Of a DNA stretch of 64,000 nt, positions 3-56,306 are shown piece by piece. This DNA comes from Oscillospiraceae bacterium. GTDB lineage: Bacteria > Bacillota > Clostridia > Oscillospirales > Acutalibacteraceae. The notes under the pieces were generated by a model that saw nothing but the letters and a program-made list of their open reading frames with translations, was not told the DNA's origin and made no database searches. Both the position numbers and the translations under genes were made by a program. Every line of letters starts with the position of its first letter. Position 1 is the first letter of the stretch. Where the stretch lies: the NCBI GenBank assembly GCA_022508845.1, contig JAFLUL010000001.1, forward strand, positions 5,699 to 69,698. Direction: 5' to 3'.

Positions 3-695
3 ATGCTTACAGAAATCGCCGGTGAATCAGTCTATAAATCTCCAACTGATATGGGCGTTAATATGGCGGGGCTTTGCATCGTTGATGATGAGGCCGTTTC
101 AGCCGCCGCAAAGGAAGAAATAATCCGCCGCTATTATGAGGCTGCCTGCCTTTCAAAGCTCGGTATGGGCGATGCCGCGGTTGTTTACAGAATAGAGCTG
201 CTCATGAATCAGCTCGGCATTTCGGTTGAGGACAGAAAAACCGTTAAGGCGGCTCTCAGCAAGGCTGAGGAGACGGGCGAGCCTGCCTGCGCAATAGAGC
301 TTTCGGACGGTAAGATAATAACCGGAAAAACCTCCGACCTGCTCGGTTCATCCTCCGCAATGCTCATAAACGTTCTTAAAAAGCTCGCGGGAATACCGGA
401 CGAAATCGAGCTTCTCTCCCGCGCTGTCATAGAGCCTATTCAGGAATTAAAGATAAAGAATATGGGCAACCGCAATCCGCGCCTCCATACCGATGAGGTT
501 TTAATTGCCCTTTCCATATGCGCGGCAACAAATCCTGTTGCGAAAAAAGCGCTTGAGCAGCTCCCTAAGCTTAAGGGGCTTGAGGCGCATTCTTCGGTTA
601 TTCTTTCGTCAACCGACTCTCAGACATTTAAAAAGCTTGGGGTACATATGACAAACGAGCCTTCAAGCGAAACCAAAAAGCTGTATCATAAATAA
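3..695 (+). CDS. DUF1846 / UPF0371 family protein, C-terminal part (5' end outside window)
   Basis: ORF is open from the window edge. The translated sequence resembles the conserved UPF0371 family as I remember it. Stop TAA at 693-695. Confidence 0.7.
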   Translation: MLTEIAGESVYKSPTDMGVNMAGLCIVDDEAVSAAAKEEIIRRYYEAACLSKLGMGDAAVVYRIELLMNQLGISVEDRKTVKAALSKAEETGEPACAIELSDGKIITGKTSDLLGSSSAMLINVLKKLAGIPDEIELLSRAVIEPIQELKIKNMGNRNPRLHTDEVLIALSICAATNPVAKKALEQLPKLKGLEAHSSVILSSTDSQTFKKLGVHMTNEPSSETKKLYHK

Positions 696-792
696 TTCGG
701 AATGCGGAATGCAAAATTCGGAATAAAGTGAACCTGCAAAATACGGTTAAAAATCGCTTGCGATTTCCCCGAAATTCCGAATTTCTGATTCC
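694..792. repeat. Long imperfect hairpin element (AATTCGGAAT-type arms, conserved 26-nt core at 749-774)
   Basis: Left arm aattcggaatgcggaatgcaaaattcggaat pairs with right arm gaaattccgaatttctgattcc. The core AAAAATCGCTTGCGATTTCCCCGAAA recurs at 22065, 46931 and, inverted, at 26587. Confidence 0.7.
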
Positions 793-9478: not shown

Positions 9479-11251
9479 TTGAGTATAGGAAAAATCGTTA
9501 AAGTGGCGGGCCCTCTTGTTATAGCCGAGGGTATGAGAGACGCCAATATGTTTGACGTTGTAAGGGTGTCCGAAAAACGCCTTATAGGAGAAATAATCGA
9601 AATGCACGGCGACAGAGCCTCGGTTCAGGTCTATGAGGAGACCTCGGGGCTTGGCACCGGCGAGAGAGTTGAATCCACCGGTATGCCCCTGAGCGTGGAG
9701 CTTGGTCCCGGACTGATAAAGGGAATTTTTGACGGTATTCAGCGTCCGCTTGAAAAAATAATGGAAAAGGCGGGCAACAATCTCACCAGAGGAATTGAAG
9801 TTCCCTCGCTTGACAGAGAAGCAAAATGGCATTTCTATCCAACTGCCAAACCCGGCGCAAAGCTTACGGGCGGCGATGAGGTTGGATATGTTAACGAGAC
9901 CGACGTTGTTAAGCATATAATTATGGTTCCCCCATCAGTTAATGGCGTTCTTGCCGAAATAAATGAGGGGGATTATACCGTTACGGATGAGATAGGCTTT
10001 ATTCAGAGCGAAAACGGCAAAAAAATTCCGCTCACCCTTATGCAGACCTGGCCTGTTCGCCGCGGCAGACCCTATAAAACAAAGCTCTCTCCCGATATGC
10101 CGCTTGTTACGGGACAAAGAGTTGTCGACGCTCTCTTCCCAATAGCAAAGGGCGGTGTTGCGGCAATTCCGGGGCCGTTCGGCAGCGGAAAAACGGTAAC
10201 GCAGCATCAGCTCGCAAAATGGGCTGAGGCGGATATAGTTGTTTATATCGGCTGCGGAGAACGCGGCAACGAAATGACGGATGTTTTAAACGAATTTCCC
10301 GAACTTATCGACCCCCACACCGGAAAATCGCTTATGGAGAGAACGGTTTTAATTGCCAACACCTCCGATATGCCTGTTGCTGCTCGGGAAGCTTCTATAT
10401 ATACAGGCATAACCATAGCTGAATATTTCAGAGATATGGGTTATAGCGTTGCGCTGATGGCAGATTCAACCTCCCGCTGGGCGGAGGCGCTCAGAGAAAT
10501 GTCGGGCCGACTTGAAGAGATGCCCGGAGAAGAGGGCTATCCAGCATACCTCGGCTCGCGTCTTGCTCAGTTTTATGAGCGCGCAGGTAGAGTTAAGGTT
10601 CTCGGAACCGGAGAAAAAGAGGCCTCCCTTTCGGTTATAGGCGCGGTATCGCCTCCCGGAGGAGATATTTCGGAGCCTGTTTCTCAGGCAACCCTTCGCA
10701 TTGTAAAGGTTTTCTGGGGGCTTGATTCCTCGCTTGCGTATAAACGTCATTTCCCGGCCATTAACTGGCTGACTTCATATTCCCTTTATGCCGACAGCCT
10801 TGGCAAGTGGTTTAACGAAAACGTTGCATCCGGTTGGACTGAAAGCAGAAGCCGCCTTATGGCGCTGCTCTCGGAGGAAGCAAGCCTTGAAGAGATAGTT
10901 AAGCTCGTTGGTATGGACGCTCTTTCTCCCTCTGACCGCCTTAAAATGGAGGCAGCAAGAAGCATAAGAGAGGATTTCCTCCATCAGCTCGCCTTCCACG
11001 AGGTTGATACCTATTCATCGCTTAAAAAGCAGTATCTTATGATGCAGCTTGTTTTAATGTATTACGACAGATGTTTTGACGCGCTGAACATCGGTGCGGA
11101 TATAGAAAAGCTCGCTTCTCTTCCCTCAAGGGAGGATATAGGCCGCTTTAAGTATGTACCCGAAACGGATATTGACGCCGAATATAAGAGAGTTTCCGCT
11201 CTGCTTTACGAGCAGATAGAGGAAGTTGCCTCTCAGAAGGAGGAATTCTGA
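9479..11251 (+). CDS. ntpA: V-type ATP synthase subunit A (catalytic)
   Basis: Walker A GPFGSGKT. Also [14 protein letters not shown] and [30 protein letters not shown] start. Confidence 0.95.
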
Positions 11252-12624
11252 TGCCTAAGGAATACAGAACTTTGCAGGAGGTCGCCGGTCCTCTTATGCT
11301 CGTTAGAGATGTTGAGGGCGTTAAATATGAGGAGCTGGGCGAAATTGAGCTTGCAAACGGCGAAACAAGGCGCTGCAGGGTGCTTGAGATAGACGGAACT
11401 AACGCTTTGGTTCAGCTCTTTGAAAACTCCCAGGGAATAAACCTCTCCAGCAGCAAGGTGAGATTTTTGGGACGGCAGATGGAGCTTGGCGTTTCGCCCG
11501 ATATGCTCGGAAGAGTTTTTGACGGTCTCGGCAGACCCATAGACGGCGGCCCAGAGCTCATTCCTGAAAAGCGAATGGACGTAAACGGAACTCCTATGAA
11601 CCCCGCCGCAAGAAGCTATCCGCAGGAATTCATTCAAACCGGCGTTTCGGCGATAGACGGACTGAACACCCTTGTAAGAGGGCAGAAGCTTCCCATTTTC
11701 TCCGCCTCCGGTTTGCCTCACGCTCAGCTTGCCGCTCAGATAGCGCGCCAGGCAAAGGTAAGAGGAACAACTGAACCCTTCGCCGTTGTTTTTGCCGCAA
11801 TGGGAATAACATTTGAGGAATCAAACTTCTTTGTTGAATCCTTTAAAGAGACGGGAGCTCTCGAGCGTACCGTAATGTTTACCAATCTTGCAAACGACCC
11901 CGCCGTTGAGCGTATCGCCACCCCCAAAATGGCTCTCACCGCAGCCGAGTATCTCGCGTTTGACCTCGGAATGCATGTGCTTGTTATTTTAACGGACATA
12001 ACGAACTATGCGGACGCTCTCCGCGAAATCTCTGCCGCACGAAAAGAGGTTCCCGGCAGACGCGGCTACCCCGGATATATGTATACCGACCTCGCTTCAA
12101 TCTATGAGCGCGCAGGCCGCCAAAAGGGGAAATCCGGCAGTATAACGATGATACCCATTCTCTCAATGCCCGAGGATGATAAAACTCACCCCATCCCCGA
12201 CCTTACCGGCTATATAACCGAAGGACAGATAATTCTTTCTCGTGAGCTGCACCGCCGCTCGGTAACTCCTCCCGTGGACGTTCTTCCGTCATTATCCCGT
12301 CTTAAGGATAAGGGTATCGGCGAGGGCAAAACCAGAGAGGACCATTCAAACACAATGAACCAGCTTTTCTCTGCCTACGCCAGAGGAAAGGACGCAAAGG
12401 AGCTGATGGTTATTCTCGGCGAAGCCGCTCTAACGGATACAGATAAGCTCTATGCCAAATTTGCCGACGCCTTTGAGCAGGAATATGTTTCTCAGGGCAG
12501 CTATACCGACCGCAGCATTGAAGAAACCCTCGATATTGGCTGGCGCCTTCTCAAGATCCTCCCCAGAAGCGAACTCAAACGTATCTCAAATAAACTTCTT
12601 GAAAAATACTACGACAAAGCTTAA
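11251..12624 (+). CDS. ntpB: V-type ATP synthase subunit B
   Basis: ATG overlaps the TGA of ntpA (TGATG). Conserved blocks seen: [31 protein letters not shown] and [26 protein letters not shown]. Confidence 0.95.
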
Positions 12625-12656
12625 TTCGTAATTCGTAATTCGTAATTCGGAATTAT
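12625..12656. repeat. Tandem heptamer repeat (AATTCGT)n, left arm of the element enclosing the four-helix-bundle ORF
   Basis: ttcgtaattcgtaattcgtaattcggaatt lies directly after the ntpB stop. It is an imperfect inverted partner of 13011-13045. Confidence 0.75.
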
Positions 12657-13010
12657 ATGATGGATATAAAAGAAAATATTATCGTTGAAAAAAGCAAAAC
12701 TTTTGCGCTGCGAATAATAAAAATGTATCAGTATTTGCGGAGAGAAAAACGCGAATATGTATTATCCGCACAGGTTCTCAGAAGCGCTACAATCATTGGA
12801 GCAAATGTCAGGGAAGCTATGCGAGGACAAAGCAAACCGGATTTTTACTCAAAGTTAAATATTGCTTTAATAGAGGCAAGCGAGACAGAATATTAAATAG
12901 AACTTTTATATGCCGGAGGTTATATTTGCCAAAAGCACTATGAAAGCATCTGCGCAGATTGTCAGGAAATAATTAAGATTTTTGTTGCAATCACGAAAAC
13001 TCAAAAATGA
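12657..13010 (+). pseudogene. Four-helix-bundle protein (23S rRNA intervening-sequence protein family), interrupted by an in-frame TAA
   Basis: Track ORF 12657..12896 ends ...IEASETEY at a TAA stop. The same frame then continues IELLYAGGYICQKHYES...ITKTQK to TGA 13008-13010. In this family the motif is E(T/A)xYW, so the TAA sits where Trp is expected. Confidence 0.65.
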
Positions 13011-13045
13011 TTCCGAATCCCGAATTTCGAATTCCGAATTTTCCC
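13011..13045. repeat. Right arm (TTCCGAAT-type repeats) of the element enclosing the four-helix-bundle ORF
   Basis: ttccgaatcccgaatttcgaattccgaatttt is an inverted complement of the left arm. It is nearly identical to the solo arm at 23938-23965. Confidence 0.7.
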
Positions 13046-18640: not shown

Positions 18641-18661
18641 GTGTTCTACAACCAAATATAA

Positions 18662-18927
18662 AGGCTGTGACGAAGACGAAAAGAGCAATATTCAGCTTGC
18701 AGAGAGCCGGGGAAGGTGTGATCCCGGCAGCCGATAGCTTATTTTCCATCCCTTCCGAGCCGAAAGAGTGAAAAATCATTTTGAGTAGTTCTTTCCGTTA
18801 TTGCTGCGTTAATGCATAAGGCTTGTCAGAGTCTGAGTGGCGCCCCGAAAGGCGCAATTTGAGTGGTACCGCGGGTTTAGTTTATAGGCTCGTCTCAAAG
18901 AAATCATCTTTGGGGCGGCTTTTTTTT
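18662..18927 (+). promoter_or_regulatory. T-box riboswitch leader with intrinsic terminator
   Basis: Stem I has a K-turn (GGC-UGU-GA / GA-GCC), an AGAGAG bulge and a distal GGUGUGA loop. Stems II and III are present. T-box sequence AAUUUGAGUGGUACCGCGG at 18856-18874. Terminator hairpin 18888-18919 plus a U-run. Confidence 0.85.
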
Positions 18928-21220: not shown

Positions 21221-21999
21221 TGAAGATAGCCTGTGTTCAAATGGATATGGCTTTTGATAAGCCGGATGAAAATTTTGCTTCCGCAAAAGAGCTTTTGAGA
21301 GAGGCAAACAGAGAAAAACCTGATGTTATTCTGCTGCCGGAAACCTGGAACGTGGGCTTTTTCCCAAAGGACACGTTAAGAGAACATTCTGATGATAACT
21401 GCCGGAGAGTTATTTCCGAGATAGGGGCTCTTGCGAAGGAGCTAAACGTCAATATAGTTGCCGGAAGCGTTGCAAATAATCGCGGCGGGGAGGTATATAA
21501 TACCTCCGTAACCTTTAACAGACAGGGAGAGGTAGTTAACGTTTACGATAAAACCCACCTGTTTTCCCCTATGGGAGAGCACGAATATTTCCAAAAGGGA
21601 AAAAATGTTTTAAGATTTACTCTTGACGGATTCTCCTGCGGTGTTATAATATGTTATGATATACGTTTTCCCGAACTGACGCGCAAAATGAGCGTTGAGG
21701 GACTGGATTTTCTGTTTGTTGTTTCGCAGTGGCCAAAGGTGAGAGTGCCTCAGCTGAAGGCTCTTTTAAGAGCGAGGGCTATTGAGAACCAGTGTTTTGC
21801 CGTTTGCTGCAATTCCTGCGGCAAAGCCGGCAGCACCGTCTACGGCGGTAATTCTATGATCTTTGACCCGTTGGGCGAACTGCTTTGCGAAGCCGGTGAC
21901 AGCCAGCAGATAATTTTTGCCGAATGCGAAACCGGAAATCTTTCGCAGATAAGAAACACCATAAACGTGTTCAGCGACAGAAGACCGGAGCTGTATTAA
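21220..21999 (+). CDS. Carbon-nitrogen hydrolase family protein (nitrilase / omega-amidase-like)
   Basis: ATG overlaps the preceding stop. LLPETWN (Glu), a Lys region, and ICYDIRFPE (catalytic Cys). Confidence 0.8.
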   Translation: MKIACVQMDMAFDKPDENFASAKELLREANREKPDVILLPETWNVGFFPKDTLREHSDDNCRRVISEIGALAKELNVNIVAGSVANNRGGEVYNTSVTFNRQGEVVNVYDKTHLFSPMGEHEYFQKGKNVLRFTLDGFSCGVIICYDIRFPELTRKMSVEGLDFLFVVSQWPKVRVPQLKALLRARAIENQCFAVCCNSCGKAGSTVYGGNSMIFDPLGELLCEAGDSQQIIFAECETGNLSQIRNTINVFSDRRPELY

Positions 22000-22125
22000 G
22001 AGTTAAGTTATTAAAGTTAAGAGTTTAGATAAGGAACCTGCGGTTGCATTATAAATATAAATCCAAAAATCGCTTGCGATTTTTCCGAAACTAAACTCTA
22101 AAATCTTAACATTAAAATTATAAGT
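22000..22125. repeat. Long hairpin element, second arm type (GAGTTAAG/TTTAGAG arms), core at 22065-22090
   Basis: The core AAAAATCGCTTGCGATTTTTCCGAAA differs from the 749 copy at two positions (TTTTT vs TTCCC before CGAAA). Arms gagttaagttattaaagttaagagtttagat and aaactaaactctaaaatcttaac are inverted. Confidence 0.7.
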
Positions 22126-22140
22126 TTAGGAGAAATTAAA

Positions 22141-23235
22141 ATGGATTATAATTTTCCCGTAACAAGAACTTCTCATCCCAAGCCCCGTCCTGAGGACGAG
22201 ACCAAGCTCGGTTTTGCCCGTTTTTTCACCGATCATATGTTTTGTATGGATTGGGACGAGGGGCTGGGCTGGCATGACGGCAGAGTTGTTCCCCACGAGC
22301 CTATTGCTATTGAACCCGCCTCCTGCGTTCTGCACTATGCGCAGATGATGTTTGAGGGTATGAAGGCTTACCGCACTCCCTCGGGTGATATTCAGCTTTT
22401 CCGCCCCGATATGAACGCGAAGCGTATGGCTCGCACCAACGAGCGTATGTGCATACCTGAGCTTCCCGAGGAAATACTTATAGAGGGTGTTAAGGCTGTT
22501 ATCAGAGAGGATATGGATTGGGTGCCGAAGGCTCCCGGAACTGCTCTCTATATTCGTCCGTTTATTTTCGGCGATGAGGTCTCTTTCTCCGTTCTTCCCG
22601 CAAAGCATTATCGCTTTATGATAATCTTAAGCCCCACCGGCTCCTATTACGCGGCAAATGACGGCGGAATCACCACAACACGAATTTACGTTCAGAAAAA
22701 ATATATCAGAGCCGCTAAGGGCGGAACCGGCTATGCCAAGGTGGGCGGAAACTACGGCGGCGGTATGCGTGCTTCTCAGGACGCTATGAAGTATAACTGC
22801 AAAGACGTTCTCTGGCTTGACGCTGCCGAGCATAAATATGTTGAAGAAATAGGCACCTCGAACGCCTTCTTCCGTATAAACGATGAGGTAATAACCGCTC
22901 CGCTTGACAGCGAGACCATTCTTCCGGGAATAACAAGAGACAGCGTTATTCAGCTTCTCAAATATTGGGGCGTTAAGGTCAGCGAGAGAAAGCTTTCAAT
23001 TGACGAGATATTCGAAGCCGAGAAAAACGGCACTCTTCAGGAAATATTCGCCAGCGGCACGGCGGCTGTTATATCTCCCATCGGCTGGCTCAACTGCGAG
23101 GGTGAGGAGCATCAGGTTGCCGACGGTAAGGTAGGCCCCATAGCTCAGAAGCTTTATGACACTCTCTACGGCATCCAGACCGGCACGGTTGAGGACTTTA
23201 TGGGGTGGACTTATCCGCTTGGACTTAAAATATAA
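22141..23235 (+). CDS. ilvE: Branched-chain amino acid aminotransferase
   Basis: FTDHMF, VLHYAQMMFEGMKAYR, YIRPFIFG and GGTGYAKVGGNYG are typical of class IV BCAT. Confidence 0.9.
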   Translation: MDYNFPVTRTSHPKPRPEDETKLGFARFFTDHMFCMDWDEGLGWHDGRVVPHEPIAIEPASCVLHYAQMMFEGMKAYRTPSGDIQLFRPDMNAKRMARTNERMCIPELPEEILIEGVKAVIREDMDWVPKAPGTALYIRPFIFGDEVSFSVLPAKHYRFMIILSPTGSYYAANDGGITTTRIYVQKKYIRAAKGGTGYAKVGGNYGGGMRASQDAMKYNCKDVLWLDAAEHKYVEEIGTSNAFFRINDEVITAPLDSETILPGITRDSVIQLLKYWGVKVSERKLSIDEIFEAEKNGTLQEIFASGTAAVISPIGWLNCEGEEHQVADGKVGPIAQKLYDTLYGIQTGTVEDFMGWTYPLGLKI

Positions 23236-23269: not shown

Positions 23270-23938
23270 ATGTATTCTCCAACTTCTTTTCCCCGCATAA
23301 CTCTTTTTTGCGGGCACTACGGCAGCGGAAAAACAAATCTTGCGGTAAATTATGCCCTTTTCCTAAAAGAAAAGGGCTTAGATGTATCACTTGCCGATAT
23401 TGATATTGTAAACCCGTATTTTCGTTCTAAGGACAGCGAGAAGGAGCTTAAAGAAAATGGTATAAACGTTGTTTCTCTCCCGTTTGCCAATTCGAGCGTT
23501 GATCTGCCGAGCCTCCCGAGCGAGGTTTACGGACTTGTGCAGCGAAGAGATATTTATGCTGTTCTCGATATCGGGGGCGATGAGAGGGGAGCGCTTGCCT
23601 TAGGACGTTTTGCGCCGTATATAGCGGAAGAAAACAACTATGATATGTTTTTTGTTGTAAATTTTTTCCGCCCCCTTACTCCCGACGCCGAAAGCGCATA
23701 TGAAGTAATGCGCGAAATTGAAGGAGCCTGTCCGCTGAAGTTTACAGGAATAATAAATAATTCCAATTTGGGAGAACTTACATCTCCCAAGGATATTGAA
23801 AAATCGCATAAAAAAGCGATGGAGCTTGGGGATATCTCGGGTGTTCCTGTTAAATTTACCTCCGTAAACGAAACGCTGAAAAACACAGTGAGCGGGGAGA
23901 ATATATTTTATATGAAATTACAAAAAAAATTATTTTAA
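23270..23938 (+). CDS. P-loop NTPase (MinD/ParA/CooC-like)
   Basis: ATG 23270 is in frame with track ORF 23156..23938. Walker A is GHYGSGKTN. Confidence 0.65.
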   Translation: MYSPTSFPRITLFCGHYGSGKTNLAVNYALFLKEKGLDVSLADIDIVNPYFRSKDSEKELKENGINVVSLPFANSSVDLPSLPSEVYGLVQRRDIYAVLDIGGDERGALALGRFAPYIAEENNYDMFFVVNFFRPLTPDAESAYEVMREIEGACPLKFTGIINNSNLGELTSPKDIEKSHKKAMELGDISGVPVKFTSVNETLKNTVSGENIFYMKLQKKLF

Positions 23939-23965
23939 TTCCGAATTTCGAATTCCGAATTGATA
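23938..23965. repeat. Solo TTCCGAAT-type arm
   Basis: aattccgaatttcgaattccgaatt nearly duplicates 13020-13042. Confidence 0.6.
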
Positions 23966-26545: not shown

Positions 26546-26640
26546 TTTTTAGGAGAGTTCTTCCGATAACTGTTTTAGAGATTAGTTTTCGGAAAGTTCG
26601 CAGGCGATTTTTGATTATATCGCTTGATTTCCTGTTATCC
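26546..26640. repeat. Hairpin-element copy with the core in inverted orientation (26587-26616) plus a partial forward core
   Basis: The reverse complement aatcaaaaatcgcctgcgaactttccgaaaactaatctctaaaac matches the core and arm of the 22065 copy. Confidence 0.6.
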
Positions 26641-27224
26641 TTACAAAATAAGAACTAAAGTTATGATACCAAAAGTATTTCAACTTTGGTTCTTTTTTAT
26701 GTCCGAAAACCCCTTTAACACGGGGATTTTCGGCTTCCCTGCATAAAAGATTAGTTTCGTTGTGCGGCTGCGATACATTTGAAAGGGGGTTGTGCCGCGG
26801 CGGAAACATTCCTTTCCTATACAACAATCCCACACTGAAATTTATCTTTGAAAATAATTTCAGCGTGGGGATATTCGTTTTATTGTTCCGAGAAATGATT
26901 CATTGCGAAAAAAGAATAGTTTCAACGTGAAAAACGGCTCGTGCTATTGGAAACGGTAACAGTATAAAAGGATACGGAAAAACTTTTCTGTTTAATGATG
27001 GAACAAACATTGAGGTTGTAGTTCAGTGAACCCCTGATTTTTTGTATAGGTTGATATTTATATATTTCTGTGTTATGATTTGTTTGATTGATGAATCTGT
27101 AAAAAATAAAAATTGAATAGAAAAACCGTAATGATCTTATATTTATGATTCTTGAAGCAAAAATAACCTCGGCAGTATCGCGGCTTAAAAGACTTAAAAT
27201 ATTTTTAAGTAAGGAGGTTTAAAT

Positions 27225-30035: not shown

Positions 30036-30048
30036 TATTATTTATTTT

Positions 30049-30144
30049 TCATTATTCAATATTCATCATTCATTCAACCATTCGACAGGATTTTCAATGA
30101 ATAATGAATGATGAAGCCGCTTCGCTGATGAATAATGAATAATT
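30049..30144. repeat. Hairpin element with CATTCATT-type arms
   Basis: Left arm attcatcattcattcaacc pairs with right arm aatgaataatgaatgatgaag. The centre attcgacaggattttc is the inverted copy of the 5' half of the tRNA terminator (gaaaatcctgtcga). Confidence 0.55.
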
Positions 30145-30219
30145 GATTACTAGAAGAGTTGTTCTGTTTATAGGATTTAACAAAGAATGTTTTCGCTTGT
30201 CATTTTGGCCTGTAAACAC

Positions 30220-30320
30220 AAATGACTTTCAATTCTGAACCAAAAGTGTTCAATTGAAAGTCATTTCTTTTGTAAAAATCCTTTATTTAACAGCCTGCAG
30301 GGCTGTTTTTTCTTTTTTGA
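30220..30320 (+). other. Perfect 15-bp inverted repeat followed by a rho-independent terminator (possible small transcript or gene remnant)
   Basis: aaatgactttcaatt at 30220-30234 pairs with aattgaaagtcattt at 30252-30266. It is followed by aacagcc-tgca-ggctgtt plus a T-run at 30289-30320. Confidence 0.4.
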
Positions 30321-30832
30321 TTTTATTGAACAATAAAATTAAAAATACTGAAAAATAGGAACAAATTTTGAAATTACATATAATGCGAACCTCATATGTG
30401 CAATTAAGTTTTTTGCAACTGCGCTTGTTTACAGTAAAAATCGACCTCTTTTCTTTCAGGTGAACCTCGGTCCCTTTTATGGCTCTTTTTTACAGCCCAT
30501 TTTATTTTTGTCAGAGCGTTCTTTTTTATATTATCTGAAAACATCACATCATTGCGATTTAGGCGAGCAGCGGAAATGCACCGATAGGTTCAGCTTTATA
30601 TCGCCGCAAGGCGAAGCGTCATAAAAAACGCTGTGCAGCCTCAGAATATTTGACCGCCGATGGGGAAGCGCTGTCTGATTAAGGTGGATATTTCAATCTG
30701 AGAAACAAAAGAATGGGGGCAAAATGAAATTGTATGCAATACGATATGAAGCAAAGAACTATTTACTTCCGGATCAAATGACAGTATAATTATTATGAGG
30801 AATAATTTAATAATCGGGGTAGTGACATAATT

Positions 30833-33484: not shown

Positions 33485-33898
33485 GTGGGACGCCAAAGAA
33501 TCGAAATTAAATTTTCCACCGTTATGAAGGCAAATGAAGCAGTTATAAACCGTTTTAATTCTGTTGACCAGTGCAAAAAAGCGAATTTAGGTAATCGTGC
33601 ACTGAACAGCACGGATATGTACAACTATAATTTTGATTGCAATATTCAGCAGGTAAAGCGGTTAGAGTTTGATGTTCTCTACTACGGTCTGTTCTTTGCT
33701 GATCGCATTGCCATTTTTAAGATGCGCTCAAATGAAATATTGTCTTGTTTTGGATACTCGGATAAACAACACAAAGGTAACGAAGGCGAGGGGCAATTTC
33801 ATCTTAATCGCAGGAGTATTGATTATCATATGCAGAACCACTTTGTTCAGTGGCTTACATACGAAGAACTCTACAATTTATTAAATAGTGAGAAATGA
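33485..33898 (+). CDS. Hypothetical protein, orphan (candidate partner of the adjacent methyltransferase)
   Basis: Track ORF starts at GTG 33485; an alternative ATG is at 33524. No strong RBS. The 3' end overlaps the convergent MTase by 18 nt. No motif recognised. Confidence 0.4.
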   Translation: MGRQRIEIKFSTVMKANEAVINRFNSVDQCKKANLGNRALNSTDMYNYNFDCNIQQVKRLEFDVLYYGLFFADRIAIFKMRSNEILSCFGYSDKQHKGNEGEGQFHLNRRSIDYHMQNHFVQWLTYEELYNLLNSEK

Positions 33899-36049
33899 GT
33901 TTTTTCCTTGCAGAGCATTTTTGATAACGCTTCTATGTTTAGCGGAAAGATTAAACAAATCCATAATATCCTGATCTAAATCCATATACAGACCGCGGAT
34001 GTTTTCGGCAGAACACATTATGCGGTCTACTTTTTTTATGATAGCCGTTTGAGTATTCACTGTAACAACAGGTATCGGCATTTGCTCAATGTGCGAACGA
34101 AGTAATTTAATGGAATTGAATTTCTTTGAAATGAAGTATGCGGCAACGCTTGAGTTAAGTATTGCAAGAATGTATTTTATATCAAGACCATCAATTTCAG
34201 GGATAACAATATTGCAGCTGTTCAGAGAGAGGGTTTGCTCATTGTCATAAGTAAAAACTGGGGTTTCGCAAATAAAACGATACAGCAATTTTTCTTTTGC
34301 CCTGTACATTTCTGTGGGAGCCACTTGCTGAAAAGATTCGGGCACAAATCGAATATAGCTTCCGGAATTTGTTTTGCTGTATCTTAGGATATTGCTGCCT
34401 TTTAAGATAACTTCGTTATCATCACGCTTTTCATCGGAAATATATTCTTTGTTATTACCGGTCACTATTCCGAGTGCAAATTTTGCATTTCCTTTCAAAT
34501 AAGCCGCATTTTCAATGCTGCTAATTGCGTTCAAGCATTCATTTTCTTCATCAGATACATTGAAAGAAAGTGTACCGTCAAAAAAACTTCTTGGTTGTGA
34601 GATGAGGAATCTTTTGTTGCCGATTGCGACCCTGCAGCCGACCGCAGTTTTATTATCATCCGGTGTGATTCCGAGAATAATGGAAGGGCAGTGAACTCCG
34701 GAGAAAACGTTGCCTAAGTAAGTGATAAATTTGAATGAACAGGAATCGAGTATCAGCCTTCTTACAGCGCTATGTGCGGCAACACTCAAAATTGCTTCCG
34801 GAAGAACAAATGCCAGCACACCATTGCAGCAAAGCATAGATAATGCTTTTTCCACAAGCAGATCATATGCCTCAAGGCTTTTTCCTGTGGCCGTTTTGAA
34901 TAGTTTGCGACATTTGGCTGCGTTTTCTTCCGAAAAATCGCTTCCCCACGGAGGATTACCCAGAATAACATCGAACTTTTGCGGAAAGCATTCAAAATAT
35001 GTATTACCTATGGTGATTCTGGATCGCAGATCTGGTACGGATATTTCTGGGAATGTGAGTGCAATATTGATGCGAGCTAAGTGGACACTGATAGGATCAA
35101 TATCCTGACCATATAAGTTTGAGTAATTTATTCCCTTTGTGCCAAGGCTTAATAAGAAATTACCTGTGCCGCAGCAAGGATCGCAGATTGTTTTTTCTTT
35201 TAAATTAGCATCATTCTCGCATAATCTTTCGATCATTTCTTTTACAACCCTTGTCGGAGTATAATAGATGCCCGAAGTTTTGCGCCGGCCAATATCACGC
35301 AAGGATATGTAAACAAATCCCAATGTGTCTTCTCCCTTTACAAAAAGGATTTTCTTTGTTAGCGCAGAGTACAACTTTTTAATTACAGAAGAATCAATAG
35401 TCTCATTTCCTATCAAATCTCTGATTAGAATATGGAAAACGTCAGTTTGTTCTTGAGATAGAAAATACGACAAGATATAATTATCCGGATATGTAATGCC
35501 TCGGCTTTGGTAATAGAGCTGAACAGCAAAATTTGCAAGGAGCACCAATAAATCTTTTTCGTTCTCTATTACGCCAAGTTCTAACAGCTCGGCAACTAAT
35601 TTTTGATTGTACTCAGTTTGAACGTAATCCTTGTAGAGCACCTTACCTGCAGCACTTTTTTTGTTTCTGCGGCTTTTGAGTTTCGTATTATCATCTGAAT
35701 TTAGTTCATCAATAAATTTTTCAATATATTCAGAACTGAACAGCTTACCGTCAATATCCGGAACGAGCTTTCCTAAACGGATCCAATTCTTTGCAGTCGC
35801 TTTTGATATTGATAATAACTTGCATATATCGTCAATAGAAAGAGCGTTTTGTGATATATCAAAAAAGCTCATTTGCTTCTCATCAATGTGTTTTCTTCGA
35901 CCATCAGCAGGCTTGAGGGCATTTTCGGGTATAAGCCATACGCCGCTAACCATATTTGCACCGCTAATGCGACCTTGTTCACACAAAATTTGAACCCGTC
36001 GTTTTGATATATTGAACTTTTCAGCTGCTTCCTTAACCGAAATATACAT
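33881..36049 (-). CDS. N6-adenine DNA methyltransferase (gamma-class, Eco57I/TaqI-like) with two N-terminal HTH_17-type DNA-binding domains
   Basis: ATG 36049 with GGGAGG 5 nt upstream. HTH regions ISVKEAAEKFNISKRRVQ and ICKLLSISKATAKNW. Motif I DPCCGTGNFL precedes motif IV GNPPWG. C-terminal TRD-like region. Confidence 0.85.
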   Translation of the reverse strand: MYISVKEAAEKFNISKRRVQILCEQGRISGANMVSGVWLIPENALKPADGRRKHIDEKQMSFFDISQNALSIDDICKLLSISKATAKNWIRLGKLVPDIDGKLFSSEYIEKFIDELNSDDNTKLKSRRNKKSAAGKVLYKDYVQTEYNQKLVAELLELGVIENEKDLLVLLANFAVQLYYQSRGITYPDNYILSYFLSQEQTDVFHILIRDLIGNETIDSSVIKKLYSALTKKILFVKGEDTLGFVYISLRDIGRRKTSGIYYTPTRVVKEMIERLCENDANLKEKTICDPCCGTGNFLLSLGTKGINYSNLYGQDIDPISVHLARINIALTFPEISVPDLRSRITIGNTYFECFPQKFDVILGNPPWGSDFSEENAAKCRKLFKTATGKSLEAYDLLVEKALSMLCCNGVLAFVLPEAILSVAAHSAVRRLILDSCSFKFITYLGNVFSGVHCPSIILGITPDDNKTAVGCRVAIGNKRFLISQPRSFFDGTLSFNVSDEENECLNAISSIENAAYLKGNAKFALGIVTGNNKEYISDEKRDDNEVILKGSNILRYSKTNSGSYIRFVPESFQQVAPTEMYRAKEKLLYRFICETPVFTYDNEQTLSLNSCNIVIPEIDGLDIKYILAILNSSVAAYFISKKFNSIKLLRSHIEQMPIPVVTVNTQTAIIKKVDRIMCSAENIRGLYMDLDQDIMDLFNLSAKHRSVIKNALQGKNSFLTI

Positions 36050-36291
36050 AGCTGCCTCCCGGTGCATTTAATGAATTTATTATACTCTTTTATGCGAATA
36101 AAGTCAACATTAATGAATATAACAGGTTCGCAGCATTTCCCTGGCAATCACGTTAGAGTTCTCTGAAAAATTCATAAACTGCTTGCCGGAACTGAGCAAT
36201 GCCAACGAGATTACGGGATTTGCCTTCGGTTTCAACCTTGGTCTGCCGCAGGCGGTGCAAGCCGTCTTGTTGGCAGTTTTTGCGGCAAAAA

Positions 36292-45960: not shown

Positions 45961-46875
45961 ATGAATAATATAAAAATAGGCGGTGTTTTGAATGCAAGCG
46001 CGGTGGCTATGGGCTGTATGCGGCTAACAAACGTTCAAGGGGATATTGACCGTGTTATAGGTACGGCTCTGGATGAGGGAATAAATTTTTTTGACCACGC
46101 GGATATTTACGGCGGCGGCAGATGCGAGGCGCTTTTTGGCGAATATCTTTCTTCTCATAGGGATATAAGAGACAAAATTATTATTCAAACCAAGTGCTCT
46201 ATCCGTCCCGGACGCTATGATTTTTCAAAATCGCATATTCTTTCGTCCGTTGAAGGGTCGCTGAAAAGGCTTAAAACAGACAGCGTGGATATACTGCTGC
46301 TTCACCGCCCGGATGCTCTTATGGAGCCGGAAGAGGTTGCCGAGGCGTTTAATGAACTCCAAAGTTCGGGCAAGGTTCGGTATTTCGGCGTATCAAATCA
46401 CAATCCCCTGCAAATTGAGCTGCTTAAAACCGCAGTAACGCAGCCGCTTATTGTTAATCAGATGCAATTGTCTCTTACGGAGGCAGGAATGATAACGTCG
46501 GGACTTAACGTTAATCTAAAAAACAGCGAATCGGTTATGCACGACGGAAGTGTTCTCGACTATATGCGCCTTAAGGGTATGACGCTGCAGGCCTGGTCTC
46601 CTTTCCAGCAGGGCTTTATAAAGAGCCCGTTTGTTGGGGATTATGAAAACTTCCCCAAGCTGAATGAAAAGCTCGATGAGCTTGCAAAAAAATACGGGGT
46701 TGAGAGCGTTTCCGTAGCTGGCGCGTGGATACTTCGCCATCCTGCAAAAATACAGCTTATTTCAGGCTCAATGAACCCCGAGCGCATTCGCGCCATTTGC
46801 GCCGGTGCGGATATCACTCTCTCAAGAGAGGACTGGTATGAGCTGTATCTTGCGGCAGGCTACCGTTTGCCCTAA
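45961..46875 (+). CDS. Aldo/keto reductase
   Basis: ATG 45961 follows aggagg. FFDHADIYG, LLLHRPD and GVSNH motifs. Confidence 0.85.
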   Translation: MNNIKIGGVLNASAVAMGCMRLTNVQGDIDRVIGTALDEGINFFDHADIYGGGRCEALFGEYLSSHRDIRDKIIIQTKCSIRPGRYDFSKSHILSSVEGSLKRLKTDSVDILLLHRPDALMEPEEVAEAFNELQSSGKVRYFGVSNHNPLQIELLKTAVTQPLIVNQMQLSLTEAGMITSGLNVNLKNSESVMHDGSVLDYMRLKGMTLQAWSPFQQGFIKSPFVGDYENFPKLNEKLDELAKKYGVESVSVAGAWILRHPAKIQLISGSMNPERIRAICAGADITLSREDWYELYLAAGYRLP

Positions 46876-47020
46876 TTTGATTCGGAATCAAATTAGAGTT
46901 TAGATTCCGGAATCTGCGCTTGGCATTATAAAAATCCAAAATCGCTTGCGATGTTTCTGAAATTCCGAATTCCGGATTTAACATATCAGTCGCCTGCGAT
47001 TTTGGATTTTTTCAAAAGTT
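46876..47020. repeat. Composite hairpin element: arms plus forward core (46931-46952) and inverted core copy (46991-47010)
   Basis: aaaatccaaaatcgcttgcgat and cgcctgcgattttggatttt are inverted copies. Arms attcggaat/attccgaat. Lies between convergent genes. Confidence 0.65.
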
Positions 47021-56131: not shown

Positions 56132-56306
56132 ATATCTTCCTCCTGTTCATTTATATGGTACTAAATATTTAAAAAAAATCAAGAATTTTTTTGTTTGTAT
56201 GGTGAATTGCATAAAAGTTGATAAATATGTATTACTTTCGTAATATTTATGATTTATATTTTTCACGTTTATAATTGCGGAAAAATAATTTTTGAGGTTT
56301 GATTTT

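Follow-up and report, generated by a model that had tools for sequence, protein, structure and literature searches.

The window analysed here is a stretch of 64,000 nucleotides (nt) from an Oscillospiraceae bacterium (contig JAFLUL010000001.1, positions 5,699 to 69,698), whose spacers hold a dispersed set of hairpins sharing a 26-nt core. A preliminary description, made from the sequence alone, had reported four full cores and an inverted half-core, each full core at the top of a long palindrome with simple-repeat arms that differ between copies. The pattern AAAATCGCYTGCGANNTYYCYGAAA recovers four full copies in the window, at 750-774 (+), 22066-22090 (+), 46938-46962 (+) and 26587-26611 (-), and has no match in 100 dinucleotide-preserving shuffles. 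The half-core lies inverted at 46990-47011 and pairs with 46930-46951 (22 nt, 91% complementary). All five were thus confirmed in number, although one full copy had been placed about 6 nt off, at 46931-46955. The core-bearing elements, and related elements built from the same kind of arm around a different cargo or none, are distributed as follows.

694-724, + strand: left arm of copy 1, AATTCGG/AATGCGG heptads, 4.4 units, found by Tandem Repeats Finder (TRF) and as an inverted repeat
749-774, + strand: core of copy 1, preceded at 725-748 by a small AACC...GGTT hairpin
774-804, + strand: right arm of copy 1, 77% complementary to the left arm at 694-724 and made of ATTCCGA-type heptads
12622-13040, + strand: heptad-armed S23p cassette between the genes for V-ATPase subunits B and D
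12622-12654 and 13008-13040, + strand: arms of that cassette (TAATTCG, 4.7 units, and ATTCCGA, 4.4 units), 34 nt, 85% complementary
21996-22029, + strand: left arm of copy 2, degenerate TTAAGAG-type heptads, overlapping the TAA (21997-21999) of a CN-hydrolase gene
22065-22090, + strand: core of copy 2, by pattern match
22091-22125, + strand: right arm of copy 2, CTAAACT-type heptads, exceeding the left arm in length by one heptad
23937-23961, + strand: lone tract, AATTCCG, 3.6 units, from the TAA of a CbiA-like gene to before a ferredoxin gene
26546-26665, - strand: copy 3, inverted relative to transcription, core at 26587-26611, after the stop of an oxidoreductase gamma subunit gene
30037-30143, + strand: core-less heptad hairpin with ATTATTC/AATGAAT arms, z = -3.5, found by TRF and as an inverted repeat
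46873-46895, + strand: small near-perfect palindrome TAATTTGATTCGGAATCAAATTA, beginning with the TAA stop of an aldo/keto reductase gene
46930-47011, no strand assigned: copy 4, core at 46938-46962 and inverted half-core at 46990-47011

At five of the six window elements the TAA stop of the upstream gene forms the start of the element or is overlapped by it; the left arm of copy 1, for instance, begins at the stop (693-695) of a DUF1846 gene (Pfam). All copies had been described as directly following stop codons, which is true of these five, whereas the hairpin placed at 30049 lies 3' of a tRNA gene and its terminator. This hairpin is nonetheless real, as is the arm-only tract at 23937-23961, and its heptads are of the type that adjoins the core in the one related genome found (L001, below). 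Downstream of copy 2 the ribosome-binding site (RBS) AGGAGAAAT and the BCAT start codon at 22141 are kept. A design of two inverted arrays of one 7-nt unit, each about 31 nt long, with cargo between them is seen in copy 1 and in the 12622-13040 cassette, and in degenerate form in copy 2. Copy 3 retains as its only arm remnant the core-adjacent arm (CTAATCTCTAAAA), which is homologous to that of copy 2, and copy 4 encloses an AATTCCG tract at 46961-46978; the copy first described at 46876 consists of one internal tract and a palindrome.

Every arm in the window that had been taken for a simple repeat is, by TRF, a tandem array of a 7-nt unit: AATGCGG/AATTCGG at 694, TAATTCG at 12622, ATTCCGA at 13010, TTAAGAG at 21996 and AATTCCG at 23937 and 46961. 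That the arms differ between copies was correctly seen, but they are not arbitrary simple repeats; they are arrays of the kind that wrap S23p genes. No period-7 tract of this kind occurred in 20 shuffles of the window. Across window and retrieved loci, 50 of 82 unique period-7 tracts measure 31-33 nt, and the modal tract holds five in-phase AAT units (37 of 74 tracts). The unit consensus is A-A-T-(T/G)-C-G-(G/T), with AAT at 84-86%; since viral loci were picked by arm pattern, these unit frequencies are biased, while the length distribution is unaffected. Left and right arms belong together, the cognate partner being the best or near-best match among all arms.

An S23p gene wrapped in this manner lies within the window itself, between two V-ATPase genes. 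The open reading frame (ORF) at 12657-13010 matches TIGR02436, "four helix bundle protein" (E = 1.2e-28; S23p, Pfam 23S_rRNA_IVP). An in-frame TAA at 12894-12896 falls on the family's conserved tryptophan codon (ETEY*IELL), and the ORF is either a pseudogene or carries a recoded stop. Close homologues (~70% identity) are very many in Ruminococcus and Oscillospiraceae metagenome-assembled genomes (MAGs), mostly on short contigs. Inverted heptad arms, differing in sequence, flank all ten close S23p cassettes examined (eight genomic sites): that of the window, one in locus L040, two in L045, three in L091 and one each in L093, L095 and the Xanthomonas locus L096. Beyond the window these are:

L040: between asd and dapA, TAATGCG arms
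L045/L091: two or three S23p genes within a type III restriction-modification operon, TTAGGAG, AATTCGG and AATGCAT arms
L093: after a beta-lactamase-family gene and before a Tex-like gene, AATTCGG/AATGCGT arms
L095: after a sensor histidine kinase gene and before a DUF1385 gene, AATTCGG/AATGCGG arms, the left of about 2.5 units
L096, 9929-10372: Xanthomonas campestris, between accB and accC, CGGGAAT/CCCATTC arrays of 31 and 30 nt

In the window, L045, L091 and L093, the arms around S23p genes include the AATTCGG/AATGCGG and TTAGGAG-like types, and peptides encoded by arms (e.g. NSECGMRN) are found at the termini of many called S23p homologues. Judged by their units, the arm types are common to the window elements and to S23p cassettes of other Clostridia and their phages, and an S23p gene in Xanthomonas is surrounded by this architecture as well. 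In L045/L091 (8900-13000) separate S23p cassettes, each with different arms, stand between consecutive genes of the operon, which sits on a mobile element with a relaxase and a serine recombinase. In L093, a 46-nt spacer plus the right-arm tract recurs as seven tandem repeats 3' of the S23p cassette (10415-10977), the tracts measuring 33, 40 or 47 nt, that is, whole-heptad steps.

Heptad-armed hairpins that lack an ORF are likewise found outside the window. One, at 3323-3483 of L040, has an interior beginning ATCGCC-TTGC-GGCGAT-GTTTT, similar to the core but for an additional stem pair; others lie at 16733-16838 of L093 and in the groES-groEL spacer of X. campestris (L096 2366-2464). The arm pattern AATTCGGAATGCGGAATKC matched 36 IMG/VR contigs (L053-L088), in which no S23p gene was detected. 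They include an ORF-less phage family of 15 orthologous copies whose lengths, 158 and 165 nt, differ by exactly one heptad. Lone tracts are common in phage loci, those of 32 nt typically standing between the end of a gene and a terminator-like hairpin rich in G+C. In L046 (11880-11951; also in L047 and L048, not in L045 or L049), a 72-nt hairpin consists of heptad arms only (AATTAGG.../...CTCCTAA); its in-frame position within a type III methyltransferase gene, where it is part of a variable linker, shows that translation of heptad hairpins is possible. L045 and L046 were considered as an empty and a filled site, and rejected as such: the linker is a variable protein region that allows no clean insertion comparison.

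To place the window elements among related genomes, we used orthologous loci reached via BCAT homologues of 87-90% identity (L031-L039, L050 and L052). The spacer between the CN-hydrolase and BCAT genes is 141 nt long in the window and 15-34 nt in these relatives; the spacers that correspond to 23937 and 26546 are equally short there or unrelated, and none of the three sites contains a period-7 tract in the relatives. Because the relatives' spacers are short and the window keeps the RBS, the elements are insertions between stop codon and RBS. By this spacer comparison they are DNA insertions relative to the relatives, set exactly at the upstream stop and leaving the next RBS intact. Two core copies lie inside operons, and the genes downstream have no common function. 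The region around copy 2 also holds a T-box leader (18658-18900, 95 bits) upstream of a gene for a 764-aa AMP-binding/cupin protein, followed 3' by genes for CN-hydrolase, BCAT and a 2-oxoacid:ferredoxin oxidoreductase, where three of the heptad elements sit; this gene run suggests a tRNA-sensed branched-chain amino-acid (BCAA) operon. On the - strand at 33881-36067, a 728-aa fused HTH/N6-adenine methylase/TaqI-like specificity protein resembles a type IIG restriction-modification enzyme, and its gene adjoins a long non-coding stretch (30150-30830).

The reading that we favour, with slightly better than even confidence, is that the core hairpins belong, as miniatures without an ORF, to a class of inserted hairpin cassettes with heptad arms. 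In such a cassette a cargo lies between two arrays, the left one holding some 4.5 units of 7 nt (mostly AAT-K-NNN, ~31 nt) and the right one being the same array inverted. The commonest cargo elsewhere is an S23p gene, as at 12622-13040; in the four core copies it is a module of 26-34 nt. Presumably the elements are co-transcribed with the host operon, and their arms would then form an imperfect stem of double-stranded RNA, about 30 bp long, which RNase III may cut or which may shield transcript ends; either effect could let an insertion be tolerated inside operons. By analogy with the S23p-bearing intervening sequences of 23S rRNA, an RNase III-processed stem is a plausible, and the most economical, account of that tolerance. 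Inverted duplication of the core, as at 46930-47011, would then yield a hairpin resembling a bidirectional terminator.

Within such a cassette the core is best described as lineage-restricted, conserved cargo. The module reads AAAATCG-CUUG-CGAUUUU followed by TTYCCGAAA (26-34 nt) and is far better conserved than the rest of the interior; in copy 2 conservation reaches over about 34 nt (22057-22090), a block that is 94% identical to L001. This locus, from a MAG of Ca. Ruminococcus equi (Oscillospiraceae), holds the sole related core outside the window among 185,579 species-representative genomes, a set that does not include the source genome; of the source strain, a 4.3-kb Logan contig was all that turned up. 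Its core is flanked by TTCATTA and AGTATTT heptads, arms unlike those of copy 2. Three further matches to AAAATCGCYTGCGANNTYYCYGAAA in the species-representative genomes are chance hits in coding regions, all 25 matches in JGI metagenomes are unrelated coding sequence, and IMG/VR yielded none. The core is also absent from plasmid and phage records and from the 36 arm-bearing viral contigs, and a BLAST search of plasmids and phages with the interior of copy 2 returned nothing or AT-rich chance matches. Neither the window, scanned with filters off, nor 558 kb of loci yielded extra copies to a covariance model of the core; one borderline match at 56272 was rejected as AT-rich promoter DNA in which the TCGC..GCGA motif is missing. 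At the gathering threshold, Rfam reports only the T-box and a tRNA in the window, and E-value searches with two copies gave only chance hairpins (best 21 bits, against thresholds of 35-211 bits). No Rfam family and no plasmid or phage record accounts for the core.

Several observations weigh against this reading. At -0.6 to -5.1 kcal/mol the core mini-hairpin AAAAUCG-CUUG-CGAUUUU has little stability, and two of the five known copies have lost an intact A-U extension, so the core appears conserved in sequence and not as a stable fold. Across the alignment its stem is either invariant or broken, without compensatory changes; an RNA function of the core itself is not supported, and we infer that it is a cargo module conserved as sequence rather than as a stable fold. 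Its orientation to transcription is forward in three of five copies and reverse in two (26546 and L001). Folding separates the copies further. Copy 1, with 31-nt arms, folds at -33.3 kcal/mol (z = -3.6), but copy 2 (z = -1.4, with one 7-nt bulge) does no better than its shuffles, nor does copy 3 on the + strand (z = -1.6; -2.4 on the - strand), where the complementary segments are short and scattered. Copy 4 folds strongly (z = -5.3), but its core forms part of the stem of the separate hairpin 46930-47011. The claim that the core sits atop an arm-built palindrome in every copy therefore survives for two of four, clearly at 694, the only one of these two with a clear win over shuffles, and weakly at 22000; it fails at 26546 and 46876.

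The pairing of the arms points the same way. Arm pairs are about 80% Watson-Crick; of the remaining positions 13 are G·U, 19 are A·C and 82 are other combinations, with no excess of G·U over A·C. At heptad position 4, 54% of pairs are mismatched, at position 7 34%, and at positions 1-3 only 1-13%, a pattern hard to reconcile with straightforward selection for stability of an RNA stem. Because the mismatches are periodic and come without a G·U excess, the arms covary as unit types, not base by base: pairing is indeed preserved while sequence varies, as had been stated, but at the level of heptamer type. The accompanying proposal of selection on structure is not supported for RNA, since neither compensatory changes nor a strand-specific G·U excess was found, and recurrent mismatches at position 4 without that excess leave selection on RNA structure undemonstrated. 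The sampling of viral loci by arm pattern, noted above, is a further weakness. On the S23p side, arms are missing from two distant phage S23p genes (38-44% identity). The idea that the core is a remnant of an S23p gene was rejected for want of evidence: in tblastn searches using 120 homologues, and in blastn searches of all loci, arm-encoded parts alone matched. As similarity between core and S23p went undetected, it is not shown that the core elements descend by deletion from an S23p cassette.

The periodic mismatches, together with the fixed 31-nt length, the five AAT-phased units and the five-chain crystal entries of the S23p family, are compatible with an account in terms of protein binding. 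Each arm would then be no stem but a platform of about five AAT-phased units for a ring-shaped or multimeric protein, either the pentameric S23p protein or one of the cold-shock type, each monomer of which covers 7 nt. Copies without an ORF, the core family included, would be served in trans as non-autonomous sites, and arm complementarity would be a by-product of two inverted arrays of one unit. The conserved AAT at positions 1-3 is nearly always paired while position 4 varies freely per arm, tracts have a quantised length of 31-33 nt and contain five AAT units in phase, and partnerless lone tracts exist at 23937 and in many phage loci. Both solved S23p-family structures, 2RLD (E = 2e-35) and 2GSC, have five chains each, and CspB, as reviewed in PMC4679880, binds heptamer repeats, one protein to each heptamer. 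However, the pentameric state of S23p is inferred from PDB chain number alone, most tracts occur as inverted pairs, about 80% of whose positions are Watson-Crick, and the window's S23p gene is interrupted by a stop codon. We consider this account unlikely, if still worth serious attention. Neutral polymerase slippage on 7-nt units, with the core conserved only as recent duplicates and the whole functionless, would explain why phage loci that are identical in other respects differ in heptad number (158 vs 165 nt), why the tandem units of L093 do so too, and why one arm of copy 2 has an extra heptad; the over-representation of heptameric repeats in bacteria has been ascribed to slippage (PMC4692102). 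It leaves unexplained the sharp length peak at 31-33 nt, the inverted pairing of arms around a cargo, the placement at stop codons in five of six elements and the recurrence of the same arm types around S23p genes in different phyla. The core, too, is conserved beyond the rest of the interior and is kept in another genome with unrelated arms, so slippage seems improbable as the whole explanation.

Attention may instead be turned to the core as a signal exapted by the host, either a terminator or attenuator that is weak and bidirectional or the palindromic operator TCGC-N2-GCGA of a DNA-binding protein, with the arms as its vehicle. The core does have a symmetrical arrangement of A-run, small hairpin and T-run, other ORF-less cassettes carry small hairpins flanked by A/T-runs, lone phage tracts abut terminator-like hairpins, and insensitivity to orientation would fit a palindromic DNA site. 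At 46930-47011 the doublet folds at -33.7 kcal/mol with U-runs on both strands; because this strong hairpin lies between convergent genes, it looks like a bidirectional terminator. It is the only terminator-like case: promoter and terminator scans made no call at single cores, which have only 2-3 G-C pairs. Termination at the two copies within operons would moreover be polar, and the genes downstream share no function, which makes a general signalling role quite improbable. Least credible of all, to the point that we give it almost no weight, is that the elements are non-autonomous partners of a single-strand DNA transposase encoded elsewhere, in the manner of palindrome-associated transposable elements (PATEs) of the IS200/IS605 insertion sequences (IS), or of repetitive extragenic palindromic (REP) sequences and their REP-associated tyrosine transposases (RAYTs). 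Intergenic, multi-copy hairpins with insertion polymorphism would suit it, as would the inverted core doublet, which resembles a REPIN (a REP doublet forming a hairpin). Yet no transposase was found in the window or beside any element, the arms are unconserved between copies, no conserved tetranucleotide head is present, and the core is missing from the plasmid, phage and viral sequences listed above.

Taken as ORF-less members of a cassette class, the core hairpins bring together two puzzles. Reports of 7-nt repeats between genes of cyanobacteria, Xanthomonas and Beggiatoaceae go back decades and have come with no explanation, and S23p four-helix-bundle genes rank among the most abundant uncharacterised small bacterial genes. 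Heptad arrays of about 31 nt wrap both S23p genes, in Clostridia and Xanthomonas, and small non-coding cargos, so in the window and the loci reached from it the two puzzles go together, and the link makes both testable. It matters for annotation as well: insertions of about 100 nt in operons of gut Oscillospiraceae and their phages could pass for regulatory RNAs. In the searchable papers, including PMC4692102, our literature searches found no description of a link between heptad repeats and S23p.

Among known systems, integron attC sites were considered and set aside, since their conserved boxes lie at the outer ends and their cassettes form arrays beside an integrase, and neither is found here. 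MITEs (miniature inverted-repeat transposable elements), REP sequences and REPINs are, like our elements, short, non-coding, palindromic and multi-copy, lie after stops and in operons, and differ in presence or absence between relatives. The original assignment to a MITE/REP-like family is right as far as dispersed insertion goes, the elements being missing at the relatives' 22000, 23937 and 26546 sites, but conserved terminal repeats and a transposase or RAYT are lacking. Here the ends vary and the centre is conserved, the reverse of a MITE, and no transposase accompanies them; as for REP/REPIN sequences, the inverted doublet at 46930-47011 is similar, but there is no GTAG-type or otherwise conserved head and no RAYT in the 64 kb. 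Target-site duplication is ambiguous: TAAG stands on both sides of copy 2 and AATT ends several elements, and both merge with the palindromic arms.

Other families share the 7-nt unit. The STRR (short tandemly repeated repetitive) sequences of cyanobacteria have units of CCCCAGT and similar. These too are intergenic tandem units of 7 bp, capable of forming hairpins and found within operons, but they belong to another phylum, have other units, and no conserved core cargo has been described for them. They form hairpins between genes, for instance in hupS-hupL, where a role in transcript stability or translational coupling was proposed (PMC2670836), and the passage of PMC2858038 that cites Vioque 1997 places STRRs inside the gene for RNase P RNA. 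In Beggiatoaceae, TAACTGA occurs as intergenic direct repeats of 2-6 copies that often overlap the upstream stop, and these are shared patchily with Cyanobacteria and Bacteroidetes (PMC4679880). The intergenic 7-nt unit and the overlap with stop codons recall our elements; unlike them, however, these repeats are nearly all direct (one is inverted), lie mostly just before start codons and are cargo-less.

Closest to the 12622-13040 cassette are the intervening sequences (IVS) of 23S rRNA in Coxiella burnetii and Leptospira. An IVS that bears S23p has a terminal stem of 28 bp that RNase III cuts (PMC4990558), and its architecture is the same: an S23p ORF enclosed by terminal inverted repeats whose stem is about 28 bp long, in a sporadic, insertion-like distribution. 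The IVS, however, occupies rRNA helix 9, 25 or 45, where the elements described here occupy mRNA spacers (V-ATPase, BCAA operon), and it carries the S23p ORF, which the four core elements lack. None of our elements lies in 23S rRNA, the location that defines an IVS; all stand between protein-coding genes or after a tRNA gene. Rehm et al. 2015 (PMC4692102) described the heptamers GGGAATC in Xanthomonas and GGGGAYT in Nostoc, 89-93% of them intergenic, at a mean of 28 nt from the upstream ORF and with 70-75 convergent (inverted) pairs per genome that are capable of forming stem-loops. Repeats of the GGGAATC type vary in length between species and were interpreted as G-quadruplex formers (PMC4692102). 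Their units contain GAAT, a feature shared with our elements, and in X. campestris their pairs wrap the S23p gene of accB-accC and sit in groES-groEL; the G-quadruplex reading does not carry over to the window arms, which are A+T-rich and incapable of that fold. Because of those two X. campestris pairs, the published 'G-quadruplex' repeats may themselves belong to the cassette class. We would go further only tentatively, to a proposal that we think is probably wrong in its full extent: that heptad hairpins, S23p IVS of rRNA, STRRs and Xanthomonas GGGAATC pairs form one mobile 'gene-in-a-hairpin' class across phyla, in which a pentameric S23p protein (a relative of Avd) would read the five-unit arm at one heptad per subunit and ORF-less copies would need S23p in trans. 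If true, such a class would account for the long-noted over-representation of heptameric repeats in bacterial genomes and assign S23p a function.

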